The position numbers and the translations under genes are program-made. From positions 1 to 55,991 of the IMG/VR virus record IMGVR_UViG_3300037755_000409: a DNA stretch of 55,991 nucleotides; one strand, written 5' to 3'. Below, in pieces: positions 3,764 through 55,991 of the stretch. Source of the DNA: a virus. Taxonomy: Duplodnaviria; Caudoviricetes. Position 1 is the first letter of the stretch; every line of letters starts with the position of its first letter. Below the pieces are notes generated by a model, which searched no databases, was not told the origin of the DNA, and worked only from the letters and a program-made list of their open reading frames with translations.

Positions 3764-3766
3764 GCA

Positions 3767-23298: not shown

Positions 23299-24675
23299 CT
23301 ACGCTAAGAGAACCAAACCTTTTTCCGCCCTCGTAATTGCCGTATACAACCACCGCCGCCGATCCAGATCCGTCCGGCCAAGCCCATCATCCCAGACAAT
23401 GACGTTTTCCCATTGCGACCCTTGCGCCTTGTGGCAGGTGATTGCCCAGCCATAGGTGGCCTCGACGAGACCTTTCTTGACGCGCCAATCCCGATCGGGC
23501 CGATCCTTGTCGAACTGCACGTGGTCGAAAAAATGCCCGGTATAAATGCGCTGCCGTTGCTTGCCGCCCGTCGACGAAACCGCATTGCCGTCCTCATCGA
23601 GCACAAGAGCAGAGAAGTAATGCTCTTTGTCACCGGGCTCGATGTCCGTCAGGGTGATGAACATGCCGTTGATGAGGCCGCGGTCGTTCATGTTCTTCAG
23701 GCAGATTATTTTCTCGCCGTTCCCTGTCGGCATGGCGTTGCCGTTGTAGCCGGCGGCGAGCCGCATCTCGTTGTTGAGCTGCAGGCGAGTAGCGTTCATG
23801 CCGCAGATCACCTGCCCGCCACGCAGCATCTGAGCCGCCGTCAGCGAGCCCTTGGGAAGCTTTGCCACATGCGGATCATAGGTGCCGTACTCGATGGGCT
23901 CGCCGTTCCGTGCGGCCGTCGCAAGCCGAATGATTGCGCTCTCTTCGGCCTGGCGATGGATTTCCGTGAGCATGACGTCCGGCTCGGCATTTGTGAATGC
24001 ACCCTCGCCGCGGATAGGCGGCAGCTGGCCGGGATCGCCGAGCACCAGGATCGGCCTGCCGAAGCTCATGAGATCCTTGGCCATCTCGTCGCCAACCATT
24101 GAAACCTCGTCGAGCACGATCAGATCGGCGAACGCGGCATCGCTCTGCGGGTTGAGCGCGAACCGCGGCTGCTTCAGCTTTTTGAGCGCCTGTTCCATCC
24201 CGATGATTTCCGACTGCTTCGCAACGCTGTCGAAGTGATCCGTGATGGCGAGTGCGGCTTCCTTCGCCTTGTCGATCTCTTCCTGGCGCTTTTTGATTTC
24301 CTCTTCCGTGGCCTCGATGACGCTATAGATCAGGCTGTGAATGGTGCGCGCCGGCGTGCCTTTCTGGCGCAACACGAGCGCGGCCTTGCCGGTGAATGTC
24401 GCGGTGACGACGCCGCCATGCATTGGCTCGTCATCGTCATCGTTCTGCCGGTCCTCGATGCCGAGCTCTTTAAGCGCATATTTCAACACCGTAGTTTTTC
24501 CGGTGCCGGCATAGCCGAACAGCCGAAAAATCTGCTGACTGTCGGTGCGCATCTTGAACCAGTCCTTTATCGAGGCAATGGCGCGCTGCTGTTTTTCCGA
24601 TAGCTGAATGTCACTCATTGCAGGCGCTTTCGCTCGATACTGAAATTTTGAACCGTGATTGAAATCGATGAGCAT
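23299..24675 (-). CDS. SF1B (RecD/Dda-like) DNA helicase
   Basis: GYAGTGKTT, TIHS, DEVSM, LGDPGQLPP, HRQA, TCHKAQGSQW, YTAITRA. Confidence 0.93.
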   Translation of the reverse strand: MLIDFNHGSKFQYRAKAPAMSDIQLSEKQQRAIASIKDWFKMRTDSQQIFRLFGYAGTGKTTVLKYALKELGIEDRQNDDDDEPMHGGVVTATFTGKAALVLRQKGTPARTIHSLIYSVIEATEEEIKKRQEEIDKAKEAALAITDHFDSVAKQSEIIGMEQALKKLKQPRFALNPQSDAAFADLIVLDEVSMVGDEMAKDLMSFGRPILVLGDPGQLPPIRGEGAFTNAEPDVMLTEIHRQAEESAIIRLATAARNGEPIEYGTYDPHVAKLPKGSLTAAQMLRGGQVICGMNATRLQLNNEMRLAAGYNGNAMPTGNGEKIICLKNMNDRGLINGMFITLTDIEPGDKEHYFSALVLDEDGNAVSSTGGKQRQRIYTGHFFDHVQFDKDRPDRDWRVKKGLVEATYGWAITCHKAQGSQWENVIVWDDGLGRTDLDRRRWLYTAITRAEKGLVLLA

Positions 24676-29154: not shown

Positions 29155-29949
29155 ATGGACGAAGGACAAGCCAAGGGCTGGCGGCAGGAACAGGCCAGAG
29201 AATTCGGCCGCCGTCTGCAATGGGCCAGAAAGCGCGCCGGATACAGCACACGCCGCGCAGTCATCGATGCCATGCCGGACAAATGGGGCATTGCCCCGCG
29301 CACTTATTATTCGCATGAGCGCGGCGAGCGCACGCCTGAGCGTGACGACACGCTGCAGCATTATTGCGAGCTGTTCAATGTGTCCCGCGAATTCCTGCTA
29401 TTCGGGACGGGAACAGAGCTCGCAGAGTTCAGCAAGACCGAAAGCCATGAAATTGCTGAACAAATTAACCACACTGCTAATCAGGTTTATGAAAAATCTT
29501 CCAAATTTGAAGCAGTCCGATATATTCCCATAATACGAGCGAGCAATATTGAAAAAATAATCTCGGGCAAGGGAACCTTAGCGAACATGACTAAGGAATT
29601 TCTACCGGTGTCCAGCAGCTTGCTCGCCGGACCTCGCAGTTTTGGCTATGAAATCGCGTCTGAAGACGACTCCATGATCGGTGATGGCGGCAAGACATTT
29701 TCGCCTGGATCCCATGTCGTGGCGGATCCCGATCGGGAAATCATGCCTGGCAAATTCCTGCTGGTGCAATTCCCCGGCATGGATCCGACAGTGCGGCAAT
29801 TGCAGGCCGGTTTTTCGTACAAACCGGACGCGCCACGATTTCCTTTCACGCTCAAAGCCTTGAACCCGCGCTTTGATCCCGTCACGATCGGGAATGCGGA
29901 TGAGTGCGTCATCCTCGGACGCGTGGTGTTTACCATAGAAGAACTTTGA
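29155..29949 (+). CDS. CI-like repressor (HTH + S24-like domain)
   Basis: RLQWARKRAG..YYSHERGER, FLLFGTG; DDSM..FSPG..V.ADPD; ILGRVV. Confidence 0.9.
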   Translation: MDEGQAKGWRQEQAREFGRRLQWARKRAGYSTRRAVIDAMPDKWGIAPRTYYSHERGERTPERDDTLQHYCELFNVSREFLLFGTGTELAEFSKTESHEIAEQINHTANQVYEKSSKFEAVRYIPIIRASNIEKIISGKGTLANMTKEFLPVSSSLLAGPRSFGYEIASEDDSMIGDGGKTFSPGSHVVADPDREIMPGKFLLVQFPGMDPTVRQLQAGFSYKPDAPRFPFTLKALNPRFDPVTIGNADECVILGRVVFTIEEL

Positions 29950-30029: not shown

Positions 30030-30111
30030 AGCTTACCGTAGCCCTCCTTGGGCGTTTCCTCCCATCAACTGGCCGGTCAGTTTCGTAACGCTTTTCTGAC
30101 CGGCCCTTTTT
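30030..30111 (+). ncRNA. MmgR/suhB-like small RNA
   Basis: CCCTCCTTGGGCGTTTCCTCCC core (30042-30063), then GGCCGGTCAG/CTGACCGGCC stem and T5; family match from memory, 5' end approximate. Confidence 0.65.
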
Positions 30112-30122
30112 GAGGGCGCAAG

Positions 30123-34015: not shown

Positions 34016-35194
34016 ATGGCACGCGTCAAGCTCAAATACGTGACCAGCGACCGCGACCGGCACGGAAACGTGCGCTTCTACTTTCGCCGGCGCGGCATGG
34101 CTCGCAAATTCCGCCTGCCCGGCCTACCGGGATCTGAAGACTTCATGGCGGCCTATCGCGCCGCGCTCGCCGGCTCGCCTGCCCCTGCCACCGAAGACAC
34201 GCCGGCGCGACCGCCTGTCATCAAAGGCACGGACTCATTCGAATGGCTCTGCGATCGCTACCGGCGCAGCCCGGAATTCACGAACAATCTGACCGAGGTA
34301 ACCCAGACACGCCGCGCGCAGATGCTGACTTCGATCTGCGCCGAGCCGCTAAGCGACGCCAGGCCGGTGCCGATCGGTCGCCTGCCCTACGATCAGATCA
34401 CTGCGAAAGCCATCCGACGCCTGCGCGACCGCCGCGCGGATCGCCCGAACGGCGCGAACAACATGATGAAGGCGCTCAAGGTGCTGATGAAATGGGCCGT
34501 CGAAGCTGATTATCTCGACCACAACCCGGCCAAGGATGTGCCGCTCATCGAGGTGCACAGCGAGGGCTATCACACCTGGACGGTGGATGAGGTCCGTCAG
34601 TTCGAGGCCCGGCACCCAGTCGGGAGCAAGGCGCGGCTGGCGCTTGCGCTAATGCTCTACACCGGCCAGCGCCGCTCGGATATCATCCGGTTCGGACGTC
34701 AGCATGTTCGCGGCGATATCCTGACCTTCACGCAGGCCAAGAACAAGGCGCGCAAGCCGGTCACCCTGACGCTTAATATACTGCCGCCGCTGGCCAGGAT
34801 CATCGAGGCGACGCCGAGCAGCAATCTTACATTTCTGGAGACCGCGCACGGCCGCCCATTCACTGGCAACGGCATTGGAAACAAGTTCCGCGAATGGTGC
34901 GATCAGGCGGGTTTACCGCACTGCACGGCTCACGGATTACGTAAAGCTGGCGCAACGATCGCCGCCGAACGCGGTGCGACGGAAAAGCAACTCATGGCGA
35001 TTTTCGGCTGGTCGACACTTGCGCAGGTTCAGAATTATACGCGGCGCGCAAGCCAGGCGAAACTGGCCGCGGGCGCGATGCATTATCTCGACTTCGACGA
35101 GAACGAAACAGAGACAAATGTGTCCCACCGGAAAAGGCAGGTTGAGAGTGGTGGGACAATTAGCGCGAAAACCGCTTTAAAATCAGGTTCTTAA
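34016..35194 (+). CDS. int: Tyrosine integrase
   Basis: YTGQRRSD (R), QAKN (K), HGLRK (HxxR), FGW, NYT (Y). Confidence 0.96.
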   Translation: MARVKLKYVTSDRDRHGNVRFYFRRRGMARKFRLPGLPGSEDFMAAYRAALAGSPAPATEDTPARPPVIKGTDSFEWLCDRYRRSPEFTNNLTEVTQTRRAQMLTSICAEPLSDARPVPIGRLPYDQITAKAIRRLRDRRADRPNGANNMMKALKVLMKWAVEADYLDHNPAKDVPLIEVHSEGYHTWTVDEVRQFEARHPVGSKARLALALMLYTGQRRSDIIRFGRQHVRGDILTFTQAKNKARKPVTLTLNILPPLARIIEATPSSNLTFLETAHGRPFTGNGIGNKFREWCDQAGLPHCTAHGLRKAGATIAAERGATEKQLMAIFGWSTLAQVQNYTRRASQAKLAAGAMHYLDFDENETETNVSHRKRQVESGGTISAKTALKSGS

Positions 35195-38904: not shown

Positions 38905-39856
38905 GAAATCTGCCAAACTTGATCGCGCCGCCTGGCACAAGCCCCTGATCTCGATCGTCATCACGCATTTCAATTATGCGGACCATATCGAGGATGCGAT
39001 TCTGTCGCTACTCGATCAGACGTATCAAAATTGGGAATGCGTCATTGTCGACGATGCGTCGAGCTATGAGCAGCATGCGCGGCTCGTCGCGATCCTCGAC
39101 AGCATCAACAGCGCAAAAATCCGACTTGTCGAGCATGCAGAGAACCGTGGACAGATCCCGGCATTCTTCACCGGCCTCGACGCCACCAGCGGCGAATTCG
39201 TCAGCATGCTCGATCCCGACGATCGCTATGCGAAGACTTTTCTTAATGAAGCGCTTGGCGCACATCTGAACAACACGGTGATGTGTCCGATCGTGTCGAC
39301 GGATCAGTACCTCGTAAAAAACGACAGCGTGATAGCAATGGTGAACTCGCACCATTTGTTGGAACAATCCCGATGGATAGGCGGGCGCGCCGTCATCGAT
39401 GGCGAAACAGCCAGCTCGCTTTTTTACACCCCATCTGATCGGCCAGGCTGGCATTGGACAAGCACATCATCGCTGATGATGAGACGTTCAGCCCTGCAGT
39501 ATCTGAAACCAAACAAAGAGCTGATCACAAAGAACTCGGTTGATGCCTATGTCGCTCAGGGATTGCATCGACTTGGCGGCACGATCTTTCTGGCCAGGCC
39601 ACTTGTTTACCGCACCCTCCACGACTGCAATGAGTATATTTCCGACACGCTCTTTTCCTCATTGCAGCATCAGGCGAGACCCACCGCCGTCAGCGCAGAG
39701 CGTGAGCTCCTGCTCGATGCCATCGATGCCATGAAGCATAACGGCGCGCCCATCCCCTCATGCGCGCTGAAGCCTAAGAAGCCCGGCCTGCTGGCGAAGT
39801 GGCGGCGCTCATTCAGCAAGCGTTGGCAAAAGCTCTTCGGGAAAAGCGCGCGATGA
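38879..39856 (+). CDS. GT2-family glycosyltransferase
   Basis: ISIVITHFNY, SLLDQTY.NWECVIVDDAS, NRGQ, LDPDD. Confidence 0.9.
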   Translation: MLKEVKSIEKSAKLDRAAWHKPLISIVITHFNYADHIEDAILSLLDQTYQNWECVIVDDASSYEQHARLVAILDSINSAKIRLVEHAENRGQIPAFFTGLDATSGEFVSMLDPDDRYAKTFLNEALGAHLNNTVMCPIVSTDQYLVKNDSVIAMVNSHHLLEQSRWIGGRAVIDGETASSLFYTPSDRPGWHWTSTSSLMMRRSALQYLKPNKELITKNSVDAYVAQGLHRLGGTIFLARPLVYRTLHDCNEYISDTLFSSLQHQARPTAVSAERELLLDAIDAMKHNGAPIPSCALKPKKPGLLAKWRRSFSKRWQKLFGKSAR

Positions 39857-41520
39857 CCGAGAAAATGCTGCGCGGCTCCAAGATCCGCATTTTCCCGACA
39901 AAGCGCCAGACACGACTTCTGGACCTATGGCGCAAGCGAACGATATCGCTCTGGAACCTGTTGCTCTCGCTCGAACAGGCGGCATATGGCGGCGAGAACA
40001 CGCGCTCGAAACTCGGCTGGCGTTCGATATGGGCGCGCGTGCTGGAAGAAAACCACGCCAAGACCTATGCCGCATGGGAAAACGGCAAGACCATCCGCGT
40101 CGGGAAAAACAAGGGCAAGGTCATCCCGCCATGCGACGGGCCAGCGCCAGAACCGGTCAATCCGGAAGTCCTAGCGAAAATCAATCGCTCGAGCAGTGAG
40201 ATGAACCCGGAAACCGGCGAACGCCTGCCGGCGAAGCTTTTCATGTGGGATACCGAGCTGCTTGCCATCATGGCGCGGCTGAAACAGGTGCCGCGCACTG
40301 AGTGGATTGCCGACCTGCCGTCCCATGCCGCACAGCGCGTCGTGAAAGATCTGATATCTGCCCTGCAGGCCATGCTCCGTGAGCGGCGTAAGCGCGCCAG
40401 CGGTGCAGGCGGGCGCGATACAGGCTTTCCGAAATTCAAGAAGAACCGCTACGGCGCAGGCAGCGTCTACTTCGCCAACACGCAGCTCGAATTCGATTTC
40501 GAAAATCAGCGCGTGCGATTTCCAAATGGCTGCGGCTGGATGCGATGCGAGTTGCCACGGCACTTGCGCAGTCAGGCGCTCGAAGACCGGTCGAAGATCA
40601 AGCTGATGGGCGGCCGCGTCTGGCGTCAAGGCGAGCGCACATATCTGTCCTGCCAGTGGGAAGTGGAAAGACCTGCGGCACTGAAGCCGACAGGACGCAC
40701 GGCCGGCGTCAAGATCGGCGCGAAGGTGTTGCTCACCACCTATGACGATCGCGGGCAGACACGCGAATATACGATGCCCGAGCCCGACAAGAAGCTGGAA
40801 ACACTACACCGCGTTGCGGCGAAGAGGCTGTCGCGCTCGATAGAGGCGCAGAAGAAGCGGGAGAAGAGGATCAAAGCAAACGGCTACAGCCAGCGTCGCG
40901 AAAAGCGCCTCGTCGCAACAGGCAAGAAGGACAGGCCGTTAAGGCTTCGTCGCACGCCAGGGTTCTACGCATCTGCCGCGCGGCTTGCTGGCTATGAGGC
41001 CATCGAGCGCGATCGGCGCGATGGGTTTCTGCACGAACTCACGACAAGCCTTGTCCGCCGGTTCGATGCCATCGCCGTCCAGCGCTTCGAAGTTGCGCGG
41101 TTGATGGAAAAGGAATCGACAAAGAAGAAACGCCGCCTGGCGCGAATCGACAATGCGGTTGAGCGCAATGCGACTGCGGAAGATATAAAGAAGCAACGGC
41201 CGATGAAGCCGGTCCGCAAGCTGATGCGCCGCGTCGCCATGGCTCGCTGTGGCCAGCTGCTGGAATACAAGTTCAAGGATCTGCGCGGGCCGGACGCCTT
41301 TCAGAAAATCGATCCGCATGATGTGAATGCCACGGCGTGCTCTGGCTGCGGAAGCATTCACCCCAAGTGGAAAGAAGCAAGCGGCATCATGCGCTGTCAT
41401 GAAGTGCTCGCCAGTGGCGAGATTTGCGGAACGGCATTGCCGCGCAACCGCAATGCCGCGCGATTGACGAAGCGGGAACTGGACGTCAGGCGCAAGGCCA
41501 AAATCAAGGAGGCAGTCTGA
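39853..41520 (+). CDS. TnpB/Cas12f-like type V effector with inactivated RuvC (555 aa)
   Basis: KIRIFPT..Q N-terminus, GFPKFKK, RuvC-I GVKIG, RuvC-II IAVQRF, Zn finger CSGC...C...C, RuvC-III RNRNAA; adjacent to cas1, cas2 and the array. Confidence 0.88.
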   Translation: MTEKMLRGSKIRIFPTKRQTRLLDLWRKRTISLWNLLLSLEQAAYGGENTRSKLGWRSIWARVLEENHAKTYAAWENGKTIRVGKNKGKVIPPCDGPAPEPVNPEVLAKINRSSSEMNPETGERLPAKLFMWDTELLAIMARLKQVPRTEWIADLPSHAAQRVVKDLISALQAMLRERRKRASGAGGRDTGFPKFKKNRYGAGSVYFANTQLEFDFENQRVRFPNGCGWMRCELPRHLRSQALEDRSKIKLMGGRVWRQGERTYLSCQWEVERPAALKPTGRTAGVKIGAKVLLTTYDDRGQTREYTMPEPDKKLETLHRVAAKRLSRSIEAQKKREKRIKANGYSQRREKRLVATGKKDRPLRLRRTPGFYASAARLAGYEAIERDRRDGFLHELTTSLVRRFDAIAVQRFEVARLMEKESTKKKRRLARIDNAVERNATAEDIKKQRPMKPVRKLMRRVAMARCGQLLEYKFKDLRGPDAFQKIDPHDVNATACSGCGSIHPKWKEASGIMRCHEVLASGEICGTALPRNRNAARLTKRELDVRRKAKIKEAV

Positions 41521-43781: not shown

Positions 43782-44129
43782 CTATTGCAGCTTGCACAGC
43801 GCATCCCAGGCAGCGTTGTGCTCGCGGATCTTTTTCACCAGTTCCGGCCGATCCAGTTTCTGAGAATACAGGATAGGCTCGAAAGCTTCGCAGGCCGTGT
43901 CGACAACAGATTGTTGTGTTGGTTGCTCACAGAGAATCCCCTTGCTGACGCCGAACACCTGCAGATCAAATATACAAACCCGCGACTCAGCCGCATCAGT
44001 CGATGTTGTATGGATCATCAGGATCAGGCTCGCTATCAGCAGCACGCTTGCGCGCCGCGCGCGCTTCCTGAATGCGATCATTTGAAATCTGTAACCCTTC
44101 AAGGATTGCCTTCGCCTCGCCAGCCGCAA
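43782..44129 (-). CDS. Putative o-spanin-like protein (start uncertain)
   Basis: Overlaps the Rz-like gene; hydrophobic segment, Cys residues, DTAC...HNAAW..LC. Confidence 0.55.
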   Translation of the reverse strand: MRLARRRQSLKGYRFQMIAFRKRARRASVLLIASLILMIHTTSTDAAESRVCIFDLQVFGVSKGILCEQPTQQSVVDTACEAFEPILYSQKLDRPELVKKIREHNAAWDALCKLQ

Positions 44130-44208
44130 TCAGCTCACGCTCGCGTAGAAACGTCACGACGATCGTGACGGCCTGCAGCGTGAGCGCGATCAGCTTTAGC
44201 CAGGTCAT
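43996..44208 (-). CDS. Putative i-spanin (Rz-like)
   Basis: N-terminal TM, helical body, DPDDPY end. Confidence 0.65.
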   Translation of the reverse strand: MTWLKLIALTLQAVTIVVTFLRERELIAAGEAKAILEGLQISNDRIQEARAARKRAADSEPDPDDPYNID

Positions 44209-44378
44209 GCAGAGCGATCACGGTTCCAGACCCACCACCAAACAAACGCGCCAATCCCGAGCACGCCACTGATTACGCCCTGATAGAGCTCACCATCCGC
44301 AACGCTTTCGCCGAACAGATAACCGCCGATGGCATAAAGGACGATCCGGACCAACTGCTGTATGCTGTCCCAAGTCAT
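44205..44378 (-). CDS. Putative holin (57 aa)
   Basis: MTWDSIQQLVRIVLYAIGGYL...VISGVLGIGAFVWWWVW; two TM segments; AAGGAG RBS. Confidence 0.75.
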   Translation of the reverse strand: MTWDSIQQLVRIVLYAIGGYLFGESVADGELYQGVISGVLGIGAFVWWWVWNRDRSA

Positions 44379-44393
44379 GATGACTCCTTTGGT

Positions 44394-45101
44394 TTAAAGC
44401 TGCGCACACTGAACGTGCATCCAGTCGTAATTTGCGACTCGCCCCAAGCTTACCCAGCCCTCAGCTTCCCAGATTTCCCAGAACGGCACGGCGTCAGGCT
44501 GACCAAGCCGCGCCTGGTCGCGCCCCCACTTGAGCTGATTGCGCTGATCGTCAAAGTCGATTGCAATGCCCCAGGAATGCGTCGACCAGGTCGAGCCGCC
44601 GCGCTTCTTGCGAGGCGCGCTAAGGCATCCGCTGAAAATATCGAGGCCGAGATCCGCGCGCTGCTTTTCGTCGAACGTTTCTGCGATGCGTTTGAAGCAG
44701 CGCGCCGCGCTGGCGTGACACTTTTTATGAATTGAAAAGCGCGTGATCTGCTCATCGAGATCCCAGGCCAGTCGCATCGGATAGGGAAGGTCGAGCGACT
44801 TCAGGTGCTTGCCCATTGCGCCGTAGAATGCAGGCACTGCGGATTCGTGCGGCCATGGGCCATCTTTTGGATAAAGCGGCTGAACCGGCTCGGCCTGCCG
44901 ATCCTCGATGACGCCATCCGGCCACAAGATGTCGTCGACATCATTCGAGCCCGCTGTGAGCTTGTGCCAGTCCTGCGCTTCGTGAATCGCGGCCCGCGTG
45001 CGGTTGCCGAGGATGCCGTCAGCCGGGCCCGGATCGAAACCGAGCTCGGCGAGGCGCAATTGAACTTTGTGAGTCCAGGTCGTCACATTTGCTATCCCCA
45101 A
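44394..45101 (-). CDS. Endolysin: PG-binding domain + M15 peptidase
   Basis: VQ.RL..LGFDPGPADG..G.RT..AI; STHSWGIAIDFD; DWMHVQ. Confidence 0.92.
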   Translation of the reverse strand: MGIANVTTWTHKVQLRLAELGFDPGPADGILGNRTRAAIHEAQDWHKLTAGSNDVDDILWPDGVIEDRQAEPVQPLYPKDGPWPHESAVPAFYGAMGKHLKSLDLPYPMRLAWDLDEQITRFSIHKKCHASAARCFKRIAETFDEKQRADLGLDIFSGCLSAPRKKRGGSTWSTHSWGIAIDFDDQRNQLKWGRDQARLGQPDAVPFWEIWEAEGWVSLGRVANYDWMHVQCAQL

Positions 45102-45137
45102 CGTAAGAAGGATATTCGCTTACGCATTGGATAGCAG

Positions 45138-45157
45138 ATTGCACACTATCGTGCAAT
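45138..45157. promoter_or_regulatory. Operator-like palindrome upstream of the endolysin
   Basis: ATTGCACACTATCGTGCAAT, same TGCAC-N6-GTGCA form as the immunity operators. Confidence 0.55.
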
Positions 45158-45176
45158 GTCGTGCGAGGCGCGCGAG

Positions 45177-45374
45177 CTAGCGTGCAATTTTCTCCCGGCC
45201 CTTCCGCGTGCTCGGCGGCCGATCGCTCTCATCGATAAACTTGTCCACCGCCGAAATGATCAGCTGCGTCAATGACGGCTTGATCGGCTGCTGACCGATC
45301 CATTCATCAACCCGATCGCGCCATTCCCTGTCGACGCGCAGATTGATCGCCACTTTTTTCTCATCTTGTTTCAT
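45177..45374 (-). CDS. Ribbon-helix-helix regulator
   Basis: AINLRVD.EWRDRVDEW...Q...PS....I..AV. Confidence 0.7.
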   Translation of the reverse strand: MKQDEKKVAINLRVDREWRDRVDEWIGQQPIKPSLTQLIISAVDKFIDESDRPPSTRKGREKIAR

Positions 45375-45498
45375 GCCCGAACGATGAAAGAAAACTAAAT
45401 AAAAGTAAAGATGAGCGTCGTTCACGAAAACGTGAACGGAAATCCCTTTCTTTTTGCTCTTTCTTTGCTTTATTTGTAAAGATTTATCTTTAAAGTGC

Positions 45499-45527
45499 TT
45501 TACATATTCGTCAGTACACGCTATATT
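45499..45527 (+). promoter_or_regulatory. Sigma70-type promoter of the small-gene/ribozyme operon
   Basis: TTTACA-17 nt-TATATT with an AT-rich upstream region. Confidence 0.7.
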
Positions 45528-45661
45528 CTAATCATAGACAGGGCGACGGGATAGCCCAGACCTACCAAGCCATAGACCCAAGCGGAGGCGGTAGACAGAC
45601 CCGAAAGACCGAGGGGACAGGAAGGAACCTGAAGCTCGGGAGGACAACAAAGGAGAAGACG

Positions 45662-45853
45662 ATGACTAAGGAAGACATGCTTTTGAAGACGCTGACCCGC
45701 ATCGAGAAGAAATTCGGTGACCTACACGACACCAGCCTGGCCCGAATGTACGAGGAGGGGCTCGACGCCCTGAGAACGAACGACGATCACAGGAAATGGA
45801 TGGCGGCCGAAGGGCTGATCGAATGGGAAAAGCATCACCTCTACGGAGCATAG
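45662..45853 (+). CDS. Small hypothetical protein (63 aa)
   Basis: AAGGAG RBS. Confidence 0.75.
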   Translation: MTKEDMLLKTLTRIEKKFGDLHDTSLARMYEEGLDALRTNDDHRKWMAAEGLIEWEKHHLYGA

Positions 45854-45925
45854 CGAAACCTAGCCTGGGAGCAATCCCCGGCGACGGTCGACCAAGCGTG
45901 GCGGCTTGGTCCTGATGAGCAGCCA
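45853..45925 (+). ncRNA. Type II hammerhead ribozyme 1
   Basis: GC-GAAAC...GGTC^(45889)-GACCAAGC/GCTTGGTC stem I-CTGATGA-GC. Confidence 0.9.
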
Positions 45926-45937
45926 AGGGAGACGACA

Positions 45938-46102
45938 ATGGAACTCACACCTCGCCAGCAGGAAATCAGCAACCGCATCGCAGACGCAAAGCAGCACTGT
46001 GACGACGGCCTGATTACCGAAATCGAGATGAAGATGAAAATTGCAGAGATCAAGCGGCAAGCGTTTCACAGCTTCGCGGCTGATCTACCCAACATGAAAT
46101 GA
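45938..46102 (+). CDS. Small hypothetical protein (54 aa)
   Basis: GGGAG RBS; MELTPRQQEISNRIAD...; lies between ribozymes 1 and 2. Confidence 0.7.
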   Translation: MELTPRQQEISNRIADAKQHCDDGLITEIEMKMKIAEIKRQAFHSFAADLPNMK

Positions 46103-46180
46103 GCGAAACCTAGCCGGAGCGTTACAGCGCTCCGGCGATGGTCGCCAACCGGTCGCGCGGTTGGCCTGATGAGCAAGCGA
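46103..46180 (+). ncRNA. Type II hammerhead ribozyme 2
   Basis: GC-GAAAC...GGTC^(46143)-GCCAACCG/CGGTTGGC stem I-CTGATGA-GC. Confidence 0.9.
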
Positions 46181-46193
46181 TGGAGAATAAACC

Positions 46194-46412
46194 ATGAAGA
46201 AATTTGAAGTCGGCAATACCTATTCAACGCGTTCAGCATGCGATCACGAATGCATCTTCAGCTATACGGTGAAAAAGCGCACGGCGAAATTTCTCTGGCT
46301 GGAAAACAAGCGCGGCGAACAAAAGCGGCGCGGTATCTATGCGCATAGCGGCATCGAATACTGCAAGCCCGAAGGCACTTATTCGATGTGCCCGGTGATC
46401 TCAGCCGACTGA
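46194..46412 (+). CDS. Small hypothetical protein (72 aa)
   Basis: GGAG RBS; KFEVG.TY.TRS.CDH.CIF. Confidence 0.8.
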   Translation: MKKFEVGNTYSTRSACDHECIFSYTVKKRTAKFLWLENKRGEQKRRGIYAHSGIEYCKPEGTYSMCPVISAD

Positions 46413-46414
46413 AA

Positions 46415-46491
46415 GCGAAACCGGCACCAGAGCGTTACAGCGCCTGGTGCCGGTCGTTTCGGCGTAGTGGCCGAAGCCTGATGAGCAGCCA
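46415..46491 (+). ncRNA. Type II hammerhead ribozyme 3
   Basis: GC-GAA-ACCGGCACCAG/CTGGTGCCGGT-C^(46455)-GTTTCGGC/GCCGAAGC-CTGATGA-GC. Confidence 0.9.
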
Positions 46492-46523
46492 GACAGTCTC
46501 ACAAACTCGATGAGCAATCAAGC

Positions 46524-46718
46524 ATGACAACCCACACGATTACCGTGACCAGCGGCGAGCTCGGCGAAATTATTCACGCACTTTACTACCAAGCCGGCGA
46601 GCGGCGCAATTTGGCGAATACTTGCGGTGATATTGCACTTCTCGCCAAACAGAAGAATGACTTTCAAGCGGAAGCCGAGCGGCTTGAGGGTTTGGCTTCG
46701 AAATTAGCTCGACTGTGA
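46524..46718 (+). CDS. Small hypothetical protein (64 aa)
   Basis: ORF following ribozyme 3. Confidence 0.6.
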   Translation: MTTHTITVTSGELGEIIHALYYQAGERRNLANTCGDIALLAKQKNDFQAEAERLEGLASKLARL

Positions 46719-46800
46719 AGAAAAGCAGAGCAGCCGCGCCCGGCGACGGAAACCACCAGGCGCGGCCTAGATGCAATCCTTGAAAAGGAAGGACTACACC

Positions 46801-47865
46801 ATGACTGAAAGATCTAAACCAACGCCGGGGCGCGGGCAATATTTGCTAGCCATCGTTCTCGGCACACTCGCCATCGGTGCCGGCGGCATCTCGCTTTCCA
46901 TGAACGCGGCGTTCGGCATGAAGACCGGCATCGTGATGGCTGCAATCTTCATCCTGTCGGATGGCGCGAAAATCATCCTGCCCATGGCCGATGCCGCTCT
47001 CGGCGGATCCTCAACAAAGCGCCGCCTGGCATACTGGACGGCCGTGCTGATCTCTGTTCTGGCCGCAACGTCCTATCTGCTGGAAACGCAGGCAACTCGC
47101 CTCATCCAGTCGGAAAAGGCGTCTGAGACCGCCACGAGCGCACGCACGGACGCGGAACGCATTCGCGGTGAACTGGCCGCGATCAGCGAGAAGCGCAGCC
47201 CGGACGCCATCAAGGCAGAGATCGAGGGCCACAAGCAGCACAAGCGGTGGACCTCGACAATCGAATGCACGGACGCGACTCTGCCGGAAAGCCGTGACTA
47301 CTGCCAGGCATACAATCAGCTCCGCGCTGATCTGGCCACGGCGGAACGGCGCGAACGTCTGGACGTCCAGCTTGCTGGCATCGTCGAGACGGTGCGGGCC
47401 ACGCCTGCGGAAGCGCTCGGCAGTGCCGACACGATCGCGGCATTGACCGGCGGCGACAAGGCCGAGATTGCGCAGCATGAGGCCATCGTCAAAGCGATCC
47501 TGATGCTGATGATCTTGGAAATCATCGCCATGTTCTCAGGCGATGCCGGAAACCTGTTCGTTCGCACATGGCGTGGACGCCGAAAGCTGGCGAAACCAAT
47601 CCAGAAGGAACCGAAATCTTCCGATACCGGACGGAAGGCAAACGAAATTTCGTCCGAAATTCCGGCGAAATCCTACTGGATGAAGCGCCTGGCAAAAGAG
47701 CAGCCTGAGCTTGCTCGCCGCGTCATCAGCGGCGAAATTTCGTGCTACAAAGCATGCATCGAGGCTGGTATCCGGAAGGCTCCCGAAATCGGCAAAGCCA
47801 AAACGAAATCGGATTGGACCAAGCCGGAAGCCTATGTGCAGACGAAGGAAGCCGTTGAGGCTTGA
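46801..47865 (+). CDS. Membrane protein with coiled-coil region
   Basis: Three N-terminal TM segments, coiled coil, fourth TM; AAGGA RBS. Confidence 0.75.
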   Translation: MTERSKPTPGRGQYLLAIVLGTLAIGAGGISLSMNAAFGMKTGIVMAAIFILSDGAKIILPMADAALGGSSTKRRLAYWTAVLISVLAATSYLLETQATRLIQSEKASETATSARTDAERIRGELAAISEKRSPDAIKAEIEGHKQHKRWTSTIECTDATLPESRDYCQAYNQLRADLATAERRERLDVQLAGIVETVRATPAEALGSADTIAALTGGDKAEIAQHEAIVKAILMLMILEIIAMFSGDAGNLFVRTWRGRRKLAKPIQKEPKSSDTGRKANEISSEIPAKSYWMKRLAKEQPELARRVISGEISCYKACIEAGIRKAPEIGKAKTKSDWTKPEAYVQTKEAVEA

Positions 47866-47891
47866 GGCCGACAATGACGACGACAGAATAG

Positions 47892-47924
47892 AGCCCCGCC
47901 AGAGCGATCTGAGCGGGGCTTTTT
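47892..47924 (+). terminator. Rho-independent terminator
   Basis: AGCCCCGC...GCGGGGCT followed by TTTT. Confidence 0.8.
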
Positions 47925-47936
47925 GTTGCCTGCAAA

Positions 47937-48470
47937 TTACGAAGCAGATCCCACCTTCTGCATCAGCAGCGAATGGGCTTCGTTGAAGCCAGTCAAATCC
48001 ACGCTTATATCGCGAGACCCTTCGGCGAATCTCGTATATCTGACCGCGGCGGTTGAACCCGTCTTGAGGGATTTGACAAGCTTGCCTGCATCAGCGCGAT
48101 GCTCTGCCGATGTCTTCGCGATAATAAACTCATTGATATTGGTCAAAAAAACAGGCGCCTTGTCGTCAACACGCACGACTGCCTCAGCGGACGGATCATC
48201 GTGATGGCCAGCCATAATGTACGGGCCATTTTTATTGATGTAGTAGACCTGAAAAGGTGCTTCCTGTCCGTATGACGTTTTGCCAAAGATTGCAGCATAG
48301 CAGCGTCGCGTTGCCAGGACATCATCTTCGGTGCAGTCAACGCGCCAGCCAGATGAAAGTGTCGTCGCTTCGGCGCGCGCTATAAACTCGTTGGTCGATG
48401 CCGTCGGTGCGCAGCCGGTTAACAGCCCAAAAGCTACAAGCGTCAAAACCTGTTTCATTCGCCTCCCCAC
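47937..48470 (-). CDS. Lipoprotein (moron; possible exclusion factor)
   Basis: MKQVLTLVAFGLLTGC lipobox. Confidence 0.7.
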   Translation of the reverse strand: MGRRMKQVLTLVAFGLLTGCAPTASTNEFIARAEATTLSSGWRVDCTEDDVLATRRCYAAIFGKTSYGQEAPFQVYYINKNGPYIMAGHHDDPSAEAVVRVDDKAPVFLTNINEFIIAKTSAEHRADAGKLVKSLKTGSTAAVRYTRFAEGSRDISVDLTGFNEAHSLLMQKVGSAS

Positions 48471-48482
48471 TGGCGTCGCCTT

Positions 48483-48647
48483 TTATTTTTCTACGCGTTC
48501 ATCACTCGCTCTCGCGTCCACATACTCACGCAGTATGCGGACAATCATATTTGCCATAGGCCGATCTTCCTCGCTGGCGATCTTCCGGAGGCTCTCTTTC
48601 AATTCGTGATCGACACGAATGTTAATTGGATAAAGCTTCTTCTGCAT
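48483..48647 (-). CDS. Arc/CopG-like ribbon-helix-helix protein (54 aa)
   Basis: MQKKLYPINIRVDHELKESLRKIASEEDRPMANMIVRILREY (translated by hand). Confidence 0.75.
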   Translation of the reverse strand: MQKKLYPINIRVDHELKESLRKIASEEDRPMANMIVRILREYVDARASDERVEK

Positions 48648-48739
48648 ACACGCACTTTAATAATACCGGATTGACAGCCGCAAGCGCCTTTGTGTAGCGT
48701 GATGAGTGTTAAATTAGTGGTGTTGTAGTGTTAATATAG

Positions 48740-49057
48740 TTGTGGGAGTTCATTAAAATGGAAGAGCGCAAAAGCCTCTCCGAAGTGCTGTTGATTGCCA
48801 AAGACGAAAAAGGCGAGGCACGCGTCATCAACCTATCAGGCCTGACGATTGAGCTCGTAATCCCGGCACCCAAAGCCGACGGCGGGACCGCCGACCTCAA
48901 GCGCCGCCTGGCCGAAGCCGTCGAGGGGCTGGAATTCTACGCAGATCCCAAGAGCCACGCACAGCGTGGACGCAATCGTTCGAAGGTGCATGCGGACAAG
49001 GGGGATCTGGCGCGGGATACGTTGGCGGCGATTAGGGAAGCAGGCGCTAGCGGTTAG
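48740..49057 (+). CDS. Hypothetical protein
   Basis: EGLEFYAD...GDLARDTL; divergent from the RHH gene. Confidence 0.55.
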   Translation: MWEFIKMEERKSLSEVLLIAKDEKGEARVINLSGLTIELVIPAPKADGGTADLKRRLAEAVEGLEFYADPKSHAQRGRNRSKVHADKGDLARDTLAAIREAGASG

Positions 49058-51240: not shown

Positions 51241-53592
51241 TCATGCCGGCGATCCTTCCGCTTCGCGCCAGATGATCACGATGATGCCGTTAGCACCGTC
51301 GCCACCGGACGCATCGTTGCCACCGCCGCCACCGCCGCCGTAATCGCCGCCATTAGCGCCGTCGCTGTCATCGCCACCGCCGCCACCGCCGCCGCCGGGA
51401 CCGGCTGAGACAATCGGCGAAACTGTCTGCGTCCATAGCTGTTCGCCATTGCCGCCCGGTGAGCCGTTCTGCCCCACGTTGCCACCGCGGCCGCCGCCAC
51501 CTTCCTGCCCCGATGGCGTTGTCTCGTTCCCGCCGCCAAAGTCAAACCGGTTATTGCCGCCGTCCTGCTGATTATTTCCGACACTGTCGCCACCATCAGC
51601 ACCGCCGCCGCCCATGCCGTTATCAGTGCTGACGCTGGCTCCATGACCGCCATTGCCGCCGTCGCCATTCGGGCCGCCCGCGCCTCCGCCACCCCCGCCG
51701 CCCGCGCGTGTCTCACCTCGCGGCGCGCCATTGCCGCCATTGCCGCCGGAATTGCGGAGATCACCGATGCCGCTTGATGCCTGCCCACCAGTGCCGCCGC
51801 CTGTCCTGCCTACGCCGCCCAGGCCGCCGCGCGCGCCGACAAGAGCGCTGCCGAACGACGCCGCGCCAAACCATGTGTCCTCGCCATTGCCAGCGCCAAA
51901 AAAGCTGCCACCATTGCCGCGCAAACCGACGCGATAGGAAATCGACGGCATAGGAGATGCCGCGAGCGCAAGGTTCGTTGATCGCGAGAACGCCCCGCCG
52001 CCGCCGCCCTTGCCGCCATCGCCGCTGCCGCGATCGCCGCCACCTCCAGCGCCAAGGCAACTGACTGAGTTGTCAGCATCGTTCCACGTGTCCGGCACCT
52101 GCCACGAAAGCACGCTGCCGGTCTGCGTCAGGAACACCACATTGACCAGCGACACGACGCCCGAGGCGAGCATTTCCTCGGCCTCGACATAGACCCGATC
52201 CGGCTCAAGCCGAACATGCGTGATCTGGATCGACACCGGCACCTCGACGCCGGTTTCATCCTGGCTGCCCCACCATTGCAATTGATAGCCGCCCGCCGGC
52301 GTGATCGCCACGTCGCGGAACACTTCGAAAGCAAACGAGCGCGGCGGATCGCGGAAGCGGCTGAGCTGGATCGAATTGAGCCGCGTTGCCGCCGTCTCGG
52401 TCTCGATCCATCGGGATTCGATCTTGCGGATTTCCGCAGAGCCGTATTCGGTCTCGCGCTCAAGATCGACATCCGCGAGCACCGCGCGAAAATTGTCCTC
52501 ATTGGCCGCGCTGTCGGTCGGATCGCGCTGGCCGTAATAGCTCCAGATCTGGCTGATGCGTTTGGCCGGCTGTTCCTTGACCTTCAGCGAGTCCTCAAGA
52601 ATCCGGTCATGGCCGAACGTCTGCGTGTCCGTCGAGATCTCGCGCAGTACATTGAGCCGCAAGCGTTGCGCCCGGTCGTCCCACCAGACCGCAAGCGCCG
52701 CCTCCTCGATCAGACCGGAAACCAGCTTGTGCACGCTGGTCGGCTCGGTGATCGTGCGCGCGTAAATCACGCCGAGAAAATCCTCGGTCTCCTGCTGCCA
52801 GTCCGCAAGATTGATGTACTCGGCAGGGACGCCGGCGTAATTGGTCAGCAGATCGTGAATGATGTCCGCCGCGTCATCGCCCGTATAGCGCAGGACGAGC
52901 TGCACGCGGTCGCCGGCGTCATGGCCTTGCGCCACCGTGCCGAATTGCGCCCGGGTGATCGTCAGAACGTCCGCCGAGCGCGCGAAGGCAACCACCTCCT
53001 TACCACCGAGACAGACCCACCCGGACGCCGGATATTCTTCGTCGCCGATACCGGCCGGGCTGAGCGTCAGAGATCCGGCCGCATTGTCGATCGAGCCGGC
53101 CAGCGAGCCGTTCGACAACGCCGGAGCCTGCGCGCGGTCCTCATCGGCCAGCTTCAGAATGTCCTTGGCCTCGATCGTATAGACGCCTTTGAAGTCCGGC
53201 CCGTCTGTATTCTCGATCACATAATAACGCGTATCCATCTGCTCGATGGTCTGCCCGACCTGGCCACGGATCAGGCGCAGCTCGCGCCCGCGCAGCTTCG
53301 TCCCGTAGCGGCCGCGCCACTTGCCGAAAAACGTCCCCTGGTCGAATGGCTCACCGTTAAAGATGTGCCGGTGATCACGCAGCGAGATCCGGAGCGATGC
53401 ACGCTCGCCGAGATCCTTGCCAAGCGAGATCCGCGCCGGCGTGAAGCTGACAGAGTCGATCGACGGGATGGCGTCGATATCCGCGGGCAGGTAATCGGTC
53501 GGCATGGCAAAGCGCCAAGTCTCGATCGCTTCCGGCGACTCCGTCACGAAGGACGGAATGTCGATCTCGATGTAAGTGAGCGCCTTGGTCAT
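51241..53592 (-). CDS. Tail hub/tip protein with glycine-rich C-terminus
   Basis: TRAQFGT..Q.H.AGD.VQ; GGGGG/GGNG repeats. Confidence 0.8.
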   Translation of the reverse strand: MTKALTYIEIDIPSFVTESPEAIETWRFAMPTDYLPADIDAIPSIDSVSFTPARISLGKDLGERASLRISLRDHRHIFNGEPFDQGTFFGKWRGRYGTKLRGRELRLIRGQVGQTIEQMDTRYYVIENTDGPDFKGVYTIEAKDILKLADEDRAQAPALSNGSLAGSIDNAAGSLTLSPAGIGDEEYPASGWVCLGGKEVVAFARSADVLTITRAQFGTVAQGHDAGDRVQLVLRYTGDDAADIIHDLLTNYAGVPAEYINLADWQQETEDFLGVIYARTITEPTSVHKLVSGLIEEAALAVWWDDRAQRLRLNVLREISTDTQTFGHDRILEDSLKVKEQPAKRISQIWSYYGQRDPTDSAANEDNFRAVLADVDLERETEYGSAEIRKIESRWIETETAATRLNSIQLSRFRDPPRSFAFEVFRDVAITPAGGYQLQWWGSQDETGVEVPVSIQITHVRLEPDRVYVEAEEMLASGVVSLVNVVFLTQTGSVLSWQVPDTWNDADNSVSCLGAGGGGDRGSGDGGKGGGGGAFSRSTNLALAASPMPSISYRVGLRGNGGSFFGAGNGEDTWFGAASFGSALVGARGGLGGVGRTGGGTGGQASSGIGDLRNSGGNGGNGAPRGETRAGGGGGGGAGGPNGDGGNGGHGASVSTDNGMGGGGADGGDSVGNNQQDGGNNRFDFGGGNETTPSGQEGGGGRGGNVGQNGSPGGNGEQLWTQTVSPIVSAGPGGGGGGGGDDSDGANGGDYGGGGGGGNDASGGDGANGIIVIIWREAEGSPA

Positions 53593-54426: not shown

Positions 54427-55991
54427 CTAGGCGGCTCTTACAATGAGCTGCGCGCCGTCTGCCGTCGCATCGTTGATCCGATCGATCAGGCCGCGCACCT
54501 GGTCGCGGCTGTAGGTTTGACCGTGCAGATTGATAGTCGTCATCTGTTGCGGCGCGGCTGGCTGGCTGGCCGCTGGAGCTGCACCGGCAGGGGCGCCGCC
54601 TCCACCGCCGCCCTTGTTCGTGCTTCTGATCGCGGCAACCTGCGCAAGCCCTGCAGCGCCCACAGCTGCGGCGGCAGCGAAGTTGAACGGCGGCGGATAA
54701 GCAGCCAACGCTTTGGTGACGCCTTCGGCTGTGTTGATGATGGCCTGTGCGATAGCAAATGCCTTGCTTTCGCCAAACACTTGCGAGAGCGAGCCGGCAA
54801 TATCGGACGCCATGCCAAGGTACGCGCCCGCGGAAACGAGAGTCGCTCTTTGCATTGCCGAGCCGAACTGCTCCGCGGAAATCTTGCTTTGGTCAAGCGC
54901 TGCCTGCAGCGCCTCTTGCTGCGATAACATTATCTCGTGCGGCGAACGGAGCGCCTCCGCCAAATGCAAGCCCGTATTTCCGAGTTGCTCGTACTCCTGC
55001 ATGAGTGCACGGAGGGCCGCCTTAGCTTCAGCAGCCTGACGCTTGGACTCCGTACCCAAATCGATGACAGGCTTGATCATGCCGGTCTCGATAGTCGTCT
55101 CCCACCCCTTCAGAAGTAGCGCACCCTCAAGCTCCGTCTTGCGCGCTTTTAACTCGGTCATCCGTCCCAACAGGCCGTCCATCTCTTTATTCACACGCTG
55201 AAGACGAAGCGACTTGAACATACCATCGCCCGCGGCGATTTCCTGCTGTGTCTGAATGACTTCGTTTAAGCTTCTATTTACTTCATCCAGCTCCTTATTA
55301 ACGCTATTGAATTCATGCGTCAGACTTGCTTGGGACCGATCCTCCAACGCAGACATTGCATCCGTGAGCGCTATAACCCCGGCCGTCAGACTGGCAACCG
55401 CCAAGACCGCCAGCGATAGCGGCCCGGCCATCGTTCCGATCACGGCAACAAACACGCCAACGCCGGCCGCCACTGCCGCGAGCGCAACCGTCACGCCACC
55501 GAAAACGACAATGCTGGTTCGCATCTCCGGAGAAAGTGCGCTGAACTCTTCGGACAGAGACTTTATTGCCTTCGCGGCAGGTACGATGACCGGCGTGATT
55601 GCTTCGCCGATCGCCTCCATCGTATCGCCCCAGGCGTTGTTCATTTGATCAAGCGCGCCCTGCGTCGTGTCCGCCATAGCCTCAGCGGCCTCGCCGTAGA
55701 AATGCTCGATCTCCTGCAGGATGACGCCCTGCGCTTCCATCACCTTGCCGGACTCAACCAGCGTTCTGATTTGCTGCTTTTGCTGTTCAGTGAACGCGAT
55801 GCCGACTCGTGACAGCGCCGTGATCCCCTTGATCGGATCGTTGAGCGCCTTGCCGAGCTGGATCGTCGAGGACTGCAAGTCCTGACCGAGCACTGCAGAC
55901 AGATCAAGCGCAGCCGCCTGCGCACGCTCGAATACAGGCCCAACAACATTTCCGAAAGTCAGAAGATTGTTGGTGACTTTCTTGAGGATTT
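54427..55991 (-). CDS. Tape measure protein, 3' part
   Basis: Ala/Gly-rich helical ORF open to the window end, joining 1-455 through the overlap. Confidence 0.9.
   Translation of the reverse strand, partial: ILKKVTNNLLTFGNVVGPVFERAQAAALDLSAVLGQDLQSSTIQLGKALNDPIKGITALSRVGIAFTEQQKQQIRTLVESGKVMEAQGVILQEIEHFYGEAAEAMADTTQGALDQMNNAWGDTMEAIGEAITPVIVPAAKAIKSLSEEFSALSPEMRTSIVVFGGVTVALAAVAAGVGVFVAVIGTMAGPLSLAVLAVASLTAGVIALTDAMSALEDRSQASLTHEFNSVNKELDEVNRSLNEVIQTQQEIAAGDGMFKSLRLQRVNKEMDGLLGRMTELKARKTELEGALLLKGWETTIETGMIKPVIDLGTESKRQAAEAKAALRALMQEYEQLGNTGLHLAEALRSPHEIMLSQQEALQAALDQSKISAEQFGSAMQRATLVSAGAYLGMASDIAGSLSQVFGESKAFAIAQAIINTAEGVTKALAAYPPPFNFAAAAAVGAAGLAQVAAIRSTNKGGGGGGAPAGAAPAASQPAAPQQMTTINLHGQTYSRDQVRGLIDRINDATADGAQLIVRAA
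55865..55991. repeat. Terminal overlap copy 2
   Basis: Identical to 1-127. Confidence 0.97.

Follow-up and report, generated by a model that had tools for sequence, protein, structure and literature searches.

Type II hammerhead ribozymes occur in prophages as clusters that flank single genes, the identities of which vary (Perreault et al. 2011, PMC3088659). According to the text of that study, three tandem arrangements cleaved as expected during in vitro transcription, and a triple array of Agrobacterium tumefaciens (tail, ardA, unknown gene, marR, integrase) cleaves both in vitro and in Escherichia coli. The same text reports that a pseudoknot of at least 4 pairs is found in the majority of type II hammerheads without being obligatory, that it is needed for fast type II cleavage, and that its weakening slows cleavage ~20- to >100-fold at 0.5 mM Mg. 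A review of 2019 gives the biological purpose of bacterial and phage hammerheads as undefined and relays the suggestion that polycistronic transcripts are processed into RNAs of differing stability or translation (PMC6765202). Here, we describe an array of three type II hammerheads in the phage record IMGVR_UViG_3300037755_000409, which was analyzed over its whole length of 55,991 bases (the window). The ribozymes stand among small open reading frames (ORFs) of an operon, named ORF1 to ORF4, upstream of a longer last gene, ORF5 (Table 1). The array is an ordinary member of the kind published in 2011 and does not represent a new kind of element. What our analysis adds is that relatives of the phage keep the ribozymes, with compensatory changes, and carry unrelated ORFs, with breakpoints at the ribozyme edges.

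We searched the whole window with cmscan, which placed copies 1 and 3 above the gathering score of the Rfam Hammerhead_II model (RF02276). This score is 37 bits and is an annotation threshold, not a structural criterion. A permissive scan of positions 44000-49000 added copy 2 (29.2 bits, E 0.0059). Three occurrences of the bare core pattern (GAAAC, a gap, GTC, a gap, CTGATGAG) are present in the 55,991 bases, all of them in the array, for an expectation of 0.02 computed from 100 shuffles, none of which gave three. The three ribozymes are found within 644 nt. A first reading of the letters alone, hereafter the original prediction, had proposed three type II cores in this operon and had named Infernal with the Rfam models as a check. 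The cores are indeed structurally complete and lie on the mRNA strand according to Rfam, the parse, and the folds, and the Rfam check was passed by copies 1 and 3, copy 2 scoring below the threshold. An independent parse arrived at the same three cut positions, and the lengths given for the two ribozyme-flanked units (254 and 312 nt) are arithmetically correct. We also considered the stem III of copy 2 as an ilvH motif (RF02993), and rejected this candidate because it scored 25.8 bits for a cut-off of 55.1.

Ribozymes of the same type are found in related contigs. The ORF5 protein is 76%, 60%, and 48% identical in the contigs L025, L026, and L029, respectively, and the endolysin of L029 is 85% identical to that of the window. 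Among 26 loci with endolysin relatives, a regular expression found hammerheads in L029 only. Three hammerheads precede ORF5 in L026 (62.2, 29.0, and 58.0 bits) and two are present in L029 (58.9 and 45.5 bits). Copy 2 of the window is identical to positions 3185-3262 of L026 (78 of 78 nt), when the DNA of ORF5 is 77-81% identical. The limits of this block of identity (46103-46180) coincide with the first G of stem II and the last nucleotide of the pseudoknot. In a soil contig of the sequencing run X2, copy 2 differs by a single substitution (A to G at 46148), by which an A-U pair becomes G-U.

All copies have the same layout: the 5' GC of stem II, GAAA, the stem III hairpin, GUC, the stem I hairpin, CUGAUGA, the 3' GC of stem II, and a tail. 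The helices follow in the order II-III-I-II; loops close stems I and III, and stem II, of 2 bp, is open. Each window copy has a stem I of 8 pairs with a 6-nt loop and a GC/GC stem II. The core GAAA(C)...G-U-C...CUGAUGA(G) was found in the three window copies and in the five copies of L026 and L029, together with the A15.1-U16.1 pair, and minimum free energy (MFE) folds recovered stems III and I in all three window copies. These copies differ in stem III and in the pseudoknot between loop I and the 3' tail. Stem III consists of 3 bp, a 2x3 internal loop, and a helix in copies 1 and 2, with a GCAA tip in copy 1 and a UUACAG tip in copy 2, where it spans 33 nt; in copy 3 it has 11 bp and a UUACAG tip. 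The pseudoknots of the first two copies, UGGC/GCCA in copy 1 and (G)UCGC/GCGA(U) in copy 2, were recovered by the parse as they had been predicted, and the tail of copy 2 has one extra A. The copies share with RF02276 the core, the topology with its 2-bp open stem II, and the pseudoknot tail, the pairing of which is imperfect in copy 3. Copy 2 differs from this model in its UCGC/GCGA pseudoknot (the consensus being UGG./.CCA), its extra tail A, and its 33-nt stem III. These differences, and mainly the first, explain its low score.

Among the eight hammerheads of the window, L026, and L029, all 64 of the 64 stem I cells hold standard pairs, and 7 of the 8 pairs show changes on both sides, a result that none of 500 shuffles equaled. 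The stem I sequences differ and nevertheless pair, as had been noticed in the window. Compensating changes give the pseudoknot three forms, UGGC/GCCA, UCGC/GCGA, and UAGC/GCUA, whose second pair is G-C, C-G, or A-U. We tabulated these forms by script; MAFFT sets the extra tail nucleotide of copy 2 at the end, so that no single structure line fits them all. The counterparts of copy 3 have UAGC/GCUA in L026 and in X2, changes in both loop and tail restoring the pairing in X2, and UAGU/GCUA in L029. The stem III of the second L029 ribozyme differs from that of copy 2 by paired changes, and the first ribozymes of L029 and L026 differ in stem I by a change from C-G to U-A. The perfect cores, together with the compensatory changes in stems and pseudoknots, suggest that selection acts on the RNA fold. 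Judging from these alignments, the ribozymes are under selection in the relatives.

The genes between the ribozymes give a different picture. The X2 contig (30,494 nt) is collinear with the window at 45430-45545 (promoter region), 45885-45926 (3' half of copy 1), 46102-46180 (copy 2), and 46433-47900 (copy 3 to ORF5). The last piece, which includes ORF4, has 124 differences and 4 gaps (~91.6% identity). Where the window has ORF1, ORF2, and ORF3, the X2 contig carries 212, 258, and 323 letters of other sequence, respectively. In L026, copies 2 and 3 stand around ORFs of 51 and 101 amino acids (aa) that have no similarity to the ORFs of the window (blastp, E up to 10). The cargo of L026 and L029 is unrelated to ORF2, and their ORF4' is unrelated to ORF4. 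The run X1, probably that of the source sample, also has contigs that we treat as relatives and not as proven variants of this phage; two of them have 258 other letters between copies 1 and 2, and others join other ribozyme edges.

We also compared 34 arrays. Both flanking ribozymes are shared at an identity of at least 88% in 12 pairs, and the segment between them is unalignable in 7 of these and kept in 5. One of the 7 swapped pairs, L147 and L163, has nothing in common except the ribozymes and was excluded from the support, and L069, L094, and L107 compared with L117 count as one lineage, not three. After a check of the flanks, the informative swapped cases are the window with L026, L069/L094/L107 with L117, L147 with L169, and, less cleanly, L075 with L163. 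The flanks of the second case are 80-93% identical up to the ribozyme edges, around unrelated cargo. Between L069 and L117, homology extends over the first ribozyme and the ribosome-binding site up to and including the start codon, is lost there, and reappears with the opening nucleotide of the following ribozyme; the two cargo proteins, of 223 and 138 aa, show no relationship. As read from these alignments, ribozymes are constant and cargo is exchangeable at the nucleotide level in the lineage of the window and in one more, and BLAST coordinates suggest the same in two further lineages.

In IMG/VR, arrays of this type are common. A strict ribozyme pattern was found in at least 120 stretches of IMG/VR, with two or more exact matches in 11 of the 80 stretches listed, and a structural regular expression found at least two copies in 31 of the 120 stretches that were fetched. 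The array of the 57-kb IMG/VR phage contig L092 is far larger than that of the window, with 11 type II hammerheads above the cut-off in 3.9 kb (2817-6749, minus strand), mostly 250-400 nt apart. Cultured actinophages have type II hammerheads too, and Streptomyces phage records match copy 1. In one of them, Streptomyces phage Salutena (L179), we found hammerheads at 1212-1269, 1501-1552, and 2951-3006 that are unannotated in the record and lie in gaps of ~90 nt between small genes, directly before annotated ribosome-binding sites.

The ribozymes themselves seem to be made of exchangeable parts. The only contact between their two halves is the 2-bp stem II, with GC/GC in all 8 copies; the pseudoknot and stems I and III are each self-contained. 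Because the halves touch only through this universal stem, a recombinant of two ribozymes would again be a ribozyme. The second ribozyme of L029 is chimeric, combining a copy 1/2-type stem III with a copy 3-type stem I, and still scores 45.5 bits. The same chimera is found in X1 as a loose end, joined near 46451, beside the cleavage site. Within arrays, the stem III tip GCG-UUACAG-CGC is common to copies 2 and 3 (46112-46139 and 46430-46443 in the window, and copies 2 and 3 of L026), and the stem III base with its 2x3 internal loop (UA vs GAY) is common to copies 1 and 2. The shared tip and the shared base suggest that the copies are mosaics of one another. In IMG/VR, the pattern of a stem III tipped by UUACAG was found in the L026 contig only. 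A further UUACAG match, in an Actinomycetota metagenome-assembled genome (MAG; L028), was attributed to chance, as it is not followed by CUGAUGAG and has no Rfam match.

The junctions between ribozymes and genes are tight. The upstream stop codons end 1 nt inside stem II, directly before it, and 2 nt before it for copies 1, 2, and 3, respectively. The original prediction placed all ribozymes 0-2 nt after stops. The start codon comes 12, 13, and 32 nt after the pseudoknot tail, and the ribosome-binding sites of ORF2 and ORF3 directly follow the tails of copies 1 and 2. L026 and L029 are without ORF1, and in them the leader enters the first ribozyme directly. The leaders of L026 (2924 onward) and L029 (3836 downward, minus strand) have an ATG with a strong ribosome-binding site, whose frame runs through the first ribozyme. 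It could encode a leader peptide coupling translation to ribozyme folding, or be a remnant.

A putative promoter lies in the AT-rich gap between divergent genes upstream of ORF1. It is the only promoter-like site in a scan of positions 45000-48600 (3.6 kb), for an average of 1.7 in shuffled sequences, so that the scan alone is not significant. What the original prediction called a strong promoter is a promoter-like site with 10 of 12 consensus matches. At the matching relative place, L026 and L029 read TTGACA-17-TATACT. Transcription would probably start near 45534. The promoter spacer of L026 and L029 holds the palindrome GTCTAGAC and a partial repeat, which could be an operator. Beside the promoter there is a small orphan ORF (no Pfam match) in the window (45177-45425, minus strand), L026 (2414-2626, plus), and L029 (4134-4346, minus), its orientation in the window being opposite to that in L026 and L029. 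By eye, these small ORFs resemble small DNA-binding repressors.

From these comparisons, we consider it likely that the array serves to cut a transcript into hairpin-capped monocistronic mRNAs and that its elements are constant sockets for exchangeable genes. Hammerhead cleavage gives 5'-OH and 2',3'-cyclic-phosphate ends. The promoter would drive one plus-strand transcript from ORF1 to ORF5, in which the three hammerheads would fold during transcription, each cutting after its own GUC. The products in the cell would be the leader with ORF1, ORF2 (254 nt), ORF3 (312 nt), and ORF4 with ORF5. Self-processing into 5'-OH units, as originally predicted, follows from the chemistry of hammerheads and has a precedent in the published cleavage of arrays. 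The cuts are ~40 nt past a stop codon, so every product would keep its stop codon. At its 5' end, an internal product would have the flush stem I hairpin with a 5'-OH, then the pseudoknot tail and the ribosome-binding site; its 3' end would consist of the long hairpin of stem III, closed off by a 2',3'-cyclic phosphate. When folded, the 254-nt and 312-nt units have a flush stem I hairpin at the 5' end and a stem III hairpin plus one nucleotide at the 3' end. Such ends may protect mRNAs against 3' exonucleases and against RNases that depend on the 5' end. Each cistron would then have a fate independent of its neighbours and a constant 5' end whatever lies upstream, and a ribozyme plus its ribosome-binding site would constitute a constant expression socket. 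Since sockets are conserved sequences, related phages could recombine there and exchange the ORFs between them as cargo. Because any recombinant stays a ribozyme, the elements would also be tolerant as crossover points, and recombination inside them would fit the chimera of L029.

Several observations weigh against this reading. The score of copy 2 is under the Rfam cut-off. The pseudoknot of copy 3, taken in register, opposes loop UAGU to tail GCCA with an A x C mismatch, leaving 3 of 5 pairs, which are non-contiguous; a shifted register gives UGGC/GCCA with 4 contiguous pairs and borrows two nucleotides of stem I. By analogy with the published effect of weakened pseudoknots, copy 3 may be slow in cutting. 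The idea of stabilization and insulation has its basis in bacterial mRNA decay and in synthetic ribozyme insulators. The X1 joints were taken at 80% likeness, some with short sides (25-42 letters), and may stem from other organisms or repeats. The replacement of cargo could also arise from ordinary phage mosaicism together with selection for intact ribozymes. Finally, as far as genomes can be compared, the ribozymes are dispensable for cargo and for ORF5. None of the 19 IMG/VR loci with relatives of ORF3 has a hammerhead, and five full records carrying such relatives have none at the cut-off (best scores of 14.5 and 14.8 bits). L025 has no ribozyme, its promoter region and a conserved hairpin leading straight to ORF5, and its homology to the window begins at 46730. 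The locus L175, in a Rhodomicrobiaceae MAG, has a relative of ORF5 (43% identity, found via the alignment A1) and is without hammerheads.

One may extend the preferred reading to a ribozyme-delimited system of gene cassettes, in which standard sockets would insulate any ORF and supply the homology for exchange, with recombinants that stay active. In its boldest form, the system would also produce RNA circles, as stable messages or transfer intermediates. We regard this extension as tentative and, at present, on the unlikely side.

If one considers instead that the main role is at the level of DNA, the elements of ~80 bp would be portable homology or dedicated recombination sites and RNA cleavage would be secondary. 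Several comparisons place breakpoints at the GUC site or at ribozyme edges, the halves reassort in the second ribozyme of L029 and in the same chimera of X1, and two phages with ~20% divergence next door have 100% identity in copy 2, as concerted evolution by exchange would give. However, the core is perfect in all eight copies and the changes in stems and pseudoknot are compensatory, which indicates selection of the RNA fold. Also, no dedicated recombinase lies beside the array, the integrase and the transposase-like gene being 4-11 kb off, and ordinary homologous recombination suffices to produce the pattern. We thus find a primary role in DNA improbable.

A second possibility is that the 254-nt and 312-nt units are joined end to end into stable RNA circles, translatable or regulatory, through a host ligase of the RtcB type or through reversal of the hammerhead reaction. 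The chemistry of the ends suits ligation. Moreover, any 5' half can pair with any 3' half, so that the unit's own ends could rebuild a core, as the 45.5 bits of the L029 chimera illustrate, and eukaryotic hammerhead retrozymes are described as forming circles (PMC4918200, PMC7229834). Yet, Perreault et al. state in their text that circular or spliced array products were sought and none detected (data not shown; PMC3088659), and our search of a limited library, restricted to abstracts and text passages, listed no study in which hammerhead arrays of bacteria or phages gave circles. Furthermore, the folded units bring the ends no closer than two terminal hairpins. Circles have little in their favor at this locus, and we give them only a slim chance.

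The ribozymes could also be conditional switches, with cleavage gated by the ribosome that finishes the upstream ORF, by Mg, or by another factor, and would then tune the output of each downstream gene. In the 5 junctions that were read (three in the window, two in L026), the position of the stop relative to stem II ranges from 1 nt inside it to 3 nt upstream, a ribosome that terminates there would sit on the 5' strand of the ribozyme, and the leader frame of L026 and L029, with its strong ribosome-binding site, reads through the first ribozyme. The weakened pseudoknot of copy 3 could confer Mg sensitivity. But no element for ligand binding or alternative pairing was found, all three copies have the active secondary structure as their MFE fold, and tight spacing may merely reflect the compaction of phage genomes, which makes gating very unlikely. 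Least credible of all, to the point of being nearly negligible, is the idea of inactive relics or selfish repeats without a role in the phage, for which one may invoke that ORF3 relatives, and ORF5 in L025 and L175, do without ribozymes, and which conflicts with the perfect cores, the compensatory changes, the 100% conservation of copy 2, and the recurrence of the arrangement in many phages, similar arrays being active according to the text of PMC3088659.

The preferred reading, processing into monocistronic mRNAs with exchangeable cargo, leaves the nature of the genes to be described. ORF1 to ORF5 had no Pfam or PHROGs match at E up to 0.001, with weak sub-threshold matches only, and ORF1, ORF2, ORF4, and ORF5 had no match in GenBank phages. 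In IMG/VR, ORF1 had no match and ORF2 had two partial matches of 19 residues only. The GC content of ORF1 by codon position is 0.56/0.33/0.75. ORF3 belongs to a widespread family of small phage proteins, with relatives at 19 IMG/VR loci and in 8 GenBank phage records, all named "hypothetical", and the Atlas clusters for ORF3 and ORF5 contain viral "hypothetical" entries only. No relative of ORF5 was found in the metagenome scan, nor in the genome scan made with the single protein, and the viral scan with A1 returned only L025, L026, and L029. The N-terminal hydrophobic region of ORF5 looks membrane-spanning in the translated sequence. An anti-defense or host-takeover role of the small ORFs, which had been put forward, may be suggested by analogy with ardA in the array of A. 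tumefaciens, the one point that speaks for it. Between ORF4 and ORF5 there is a GC-rich hairpin, ~35 nt before the start of ORF5 in the window, L025 (~3945-3990), L026 (~3965-4000), and L029 (~2860-2820, minus strand), whether or not an array is present. On the minus strand, it is next to a short T-run and resembles a terminator.

The record is a complete virus entry of IMG/VR, with direct terminal repeats and a completeness estimated by CheckV at 74%. Its genes for integrase, terminase, portal, head, tail, and lysis identify it as a temperate tailed phage. On the plus strand, the array forms an island, flanked on one side by minus-strand tail genes and on the other by the minus-strand endolysin; its neighbours are the endolysin, the small orphan ORF, and ORF5. 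The position looks more like that of a self-promoted accessory ("moron"-like) island than that of an early operon. The proteins had been called early in the original prediction, and we found nothing to support this label: the place of the island amid minus-strand tail and lysis genes points elsewhere, and timing cannot be read from sequence. Directly downstream of the CI-like repressor gene, at 30034-30120 (plus strand), there is a match to the suhB/mmgR-type small RNA (sRNA) family RF00519 (45.1 bits for a cut-off of 41), which would be a phage copy of a host-type regulatory sRNA. The host is likely alphaproteobacterial, given this mmgR-like sRNA and the Rhodomicrobiaceae MAG that carries the sole ORF5 relative found in the genome collection. 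A tRNA-like match (33.1 bits) was found near the contig end of L025 (5736-5798, minus strand) and may be the remnant of an attachment site.

Table 1. Features of the hammerhead array and of the phage record that carries it (positions in the window).
Feature	Positions	Strand	Remarks
Promoter-like site TTTACA-17-TATATT	45499-45527	+	10/12 consensus matches; AT-rich gap between divergent genes
ORF1	45662-45853	+	63 aa; GGAG ribosome-binding site; no known family
Hammerhead type II, copy 1	45851-45928	+	58.6 bits; predicted cut after 45889
ORF2	45938-46102	+	54 aa; cargo of unit 2 (45890-46143, 254 nt)
Hammerhead type II, copy 2	46101-46182	+	29.2 bits; predicted cut after 46143
ORF3	46194-46412	+	72 aa, Cys/His-rich; cargo of unit 3 (46144-46455, 312 nt)
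Hammerhead type II, copy 3	46413-46494	+	59.4 bits; predicted cut after 46455
ORF4	46524-46718	+	64 aa; weak ribosome-binding site; no known family
GC-rich 16-bp hairpin	46732-46767	unassigned	between ORF4 and ORF5
ORF5	46801-47865	+	354 aa from likely start (frame opens 46771); last gene, conserved
Major head protein	12424-13728	-	PHROG match
Portal	14463-15851	-	PHROG match
Terminase large subunit	15851-17392	-	PHROG match
Primase	20339-22729	-	PHROG match
Helicase	23299-24672	-	PHROG match
CI-like repressor	29155-29946	+	PHROG match
Integrase	34016-35191	+	PHROG match
Transposase-like gene	39799-41517	+	PHROG match
Endolysin	44394-45098	-	PHROG match
Tail fibre	51241-53589	-	PHROG match
Tape measure	54427-55890	-	PHROG match

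The locus is a compact case, with one putative promoter, three ribozymes, and four small cistrons, and its relatives provide natural "experiments": the same ribozymes with other cargo, a relative with a chimeric ribozyme, and L025, which lacks the array. If the idea of sockets is true, it would explain why ribozymes are found at gene boundaries in accessory regions of phages, why the conservation of their stems far exceeds the catalytic need, and how orphan small genes, possibly involved in counter-defense, are shuffled among phages.

The arrays of Perreault et al. are the closest relatives in kind. As described in the text of that study, their ribozymes are, like ours, of type II and on the mRNA strand, stand between short phage genes near tail genes, and pair loop I with the 3' tail in a pseudoknot, which in copy 3 of the window is imperfect. 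The two also share non-constant genes, a proposed processing into single-gene mRNAs (PMC3088659), and likely the same host group. The cargo is different, ardA and one unknown gene in that array and four orphan small ORFs here. The edge-precise replacement of cargo and the reassortment of halves, seen here in three related contigs and in read-level variants, are not part of the text of PMC3088659. A literature search that did not cover figures and supplements returned no description of edge-precise cargo exchange in hammerhead arrays.

Outside phage hammerheads, other systems have some of these traits. Integron arrays have one promoter, small promoterless ORFs, structured conserved separators, and varying cargo. 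The likeness is in layout only: there is no IntI-type integrase beside the array of the window, and its bounding elements are hammerheads, i.e., RNA enzymes (attC sites were not searched with a model). The retrozymes and viroid-like circles have units with two hammerheads and ligatable 5'-OH and 2',3'-cyclic-phosphate ends, as described in the texts consulted, and differ in being non-coding repeats with type I or III ribozymes, proven circles, and a cycle of reverse transcription (PMC4918200, PMC7229834, PMC7761336). Here, in contrast, the units are protein-coding cistrons of a DNA phage, known from DNA alone. The closest functional analogy may be that of the synthetic insulators of the RiboJ type, in which a ribozyme before the ribosome-binding site removes variable upstream RNA and leaves equal 5' ends. 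These are engineered, and a natural insulating role is what we infer for the present array by analogy. If the idea of sockets is true, such arrays would be the natural counterpart of the ribozyme insulators of synthetic biology.

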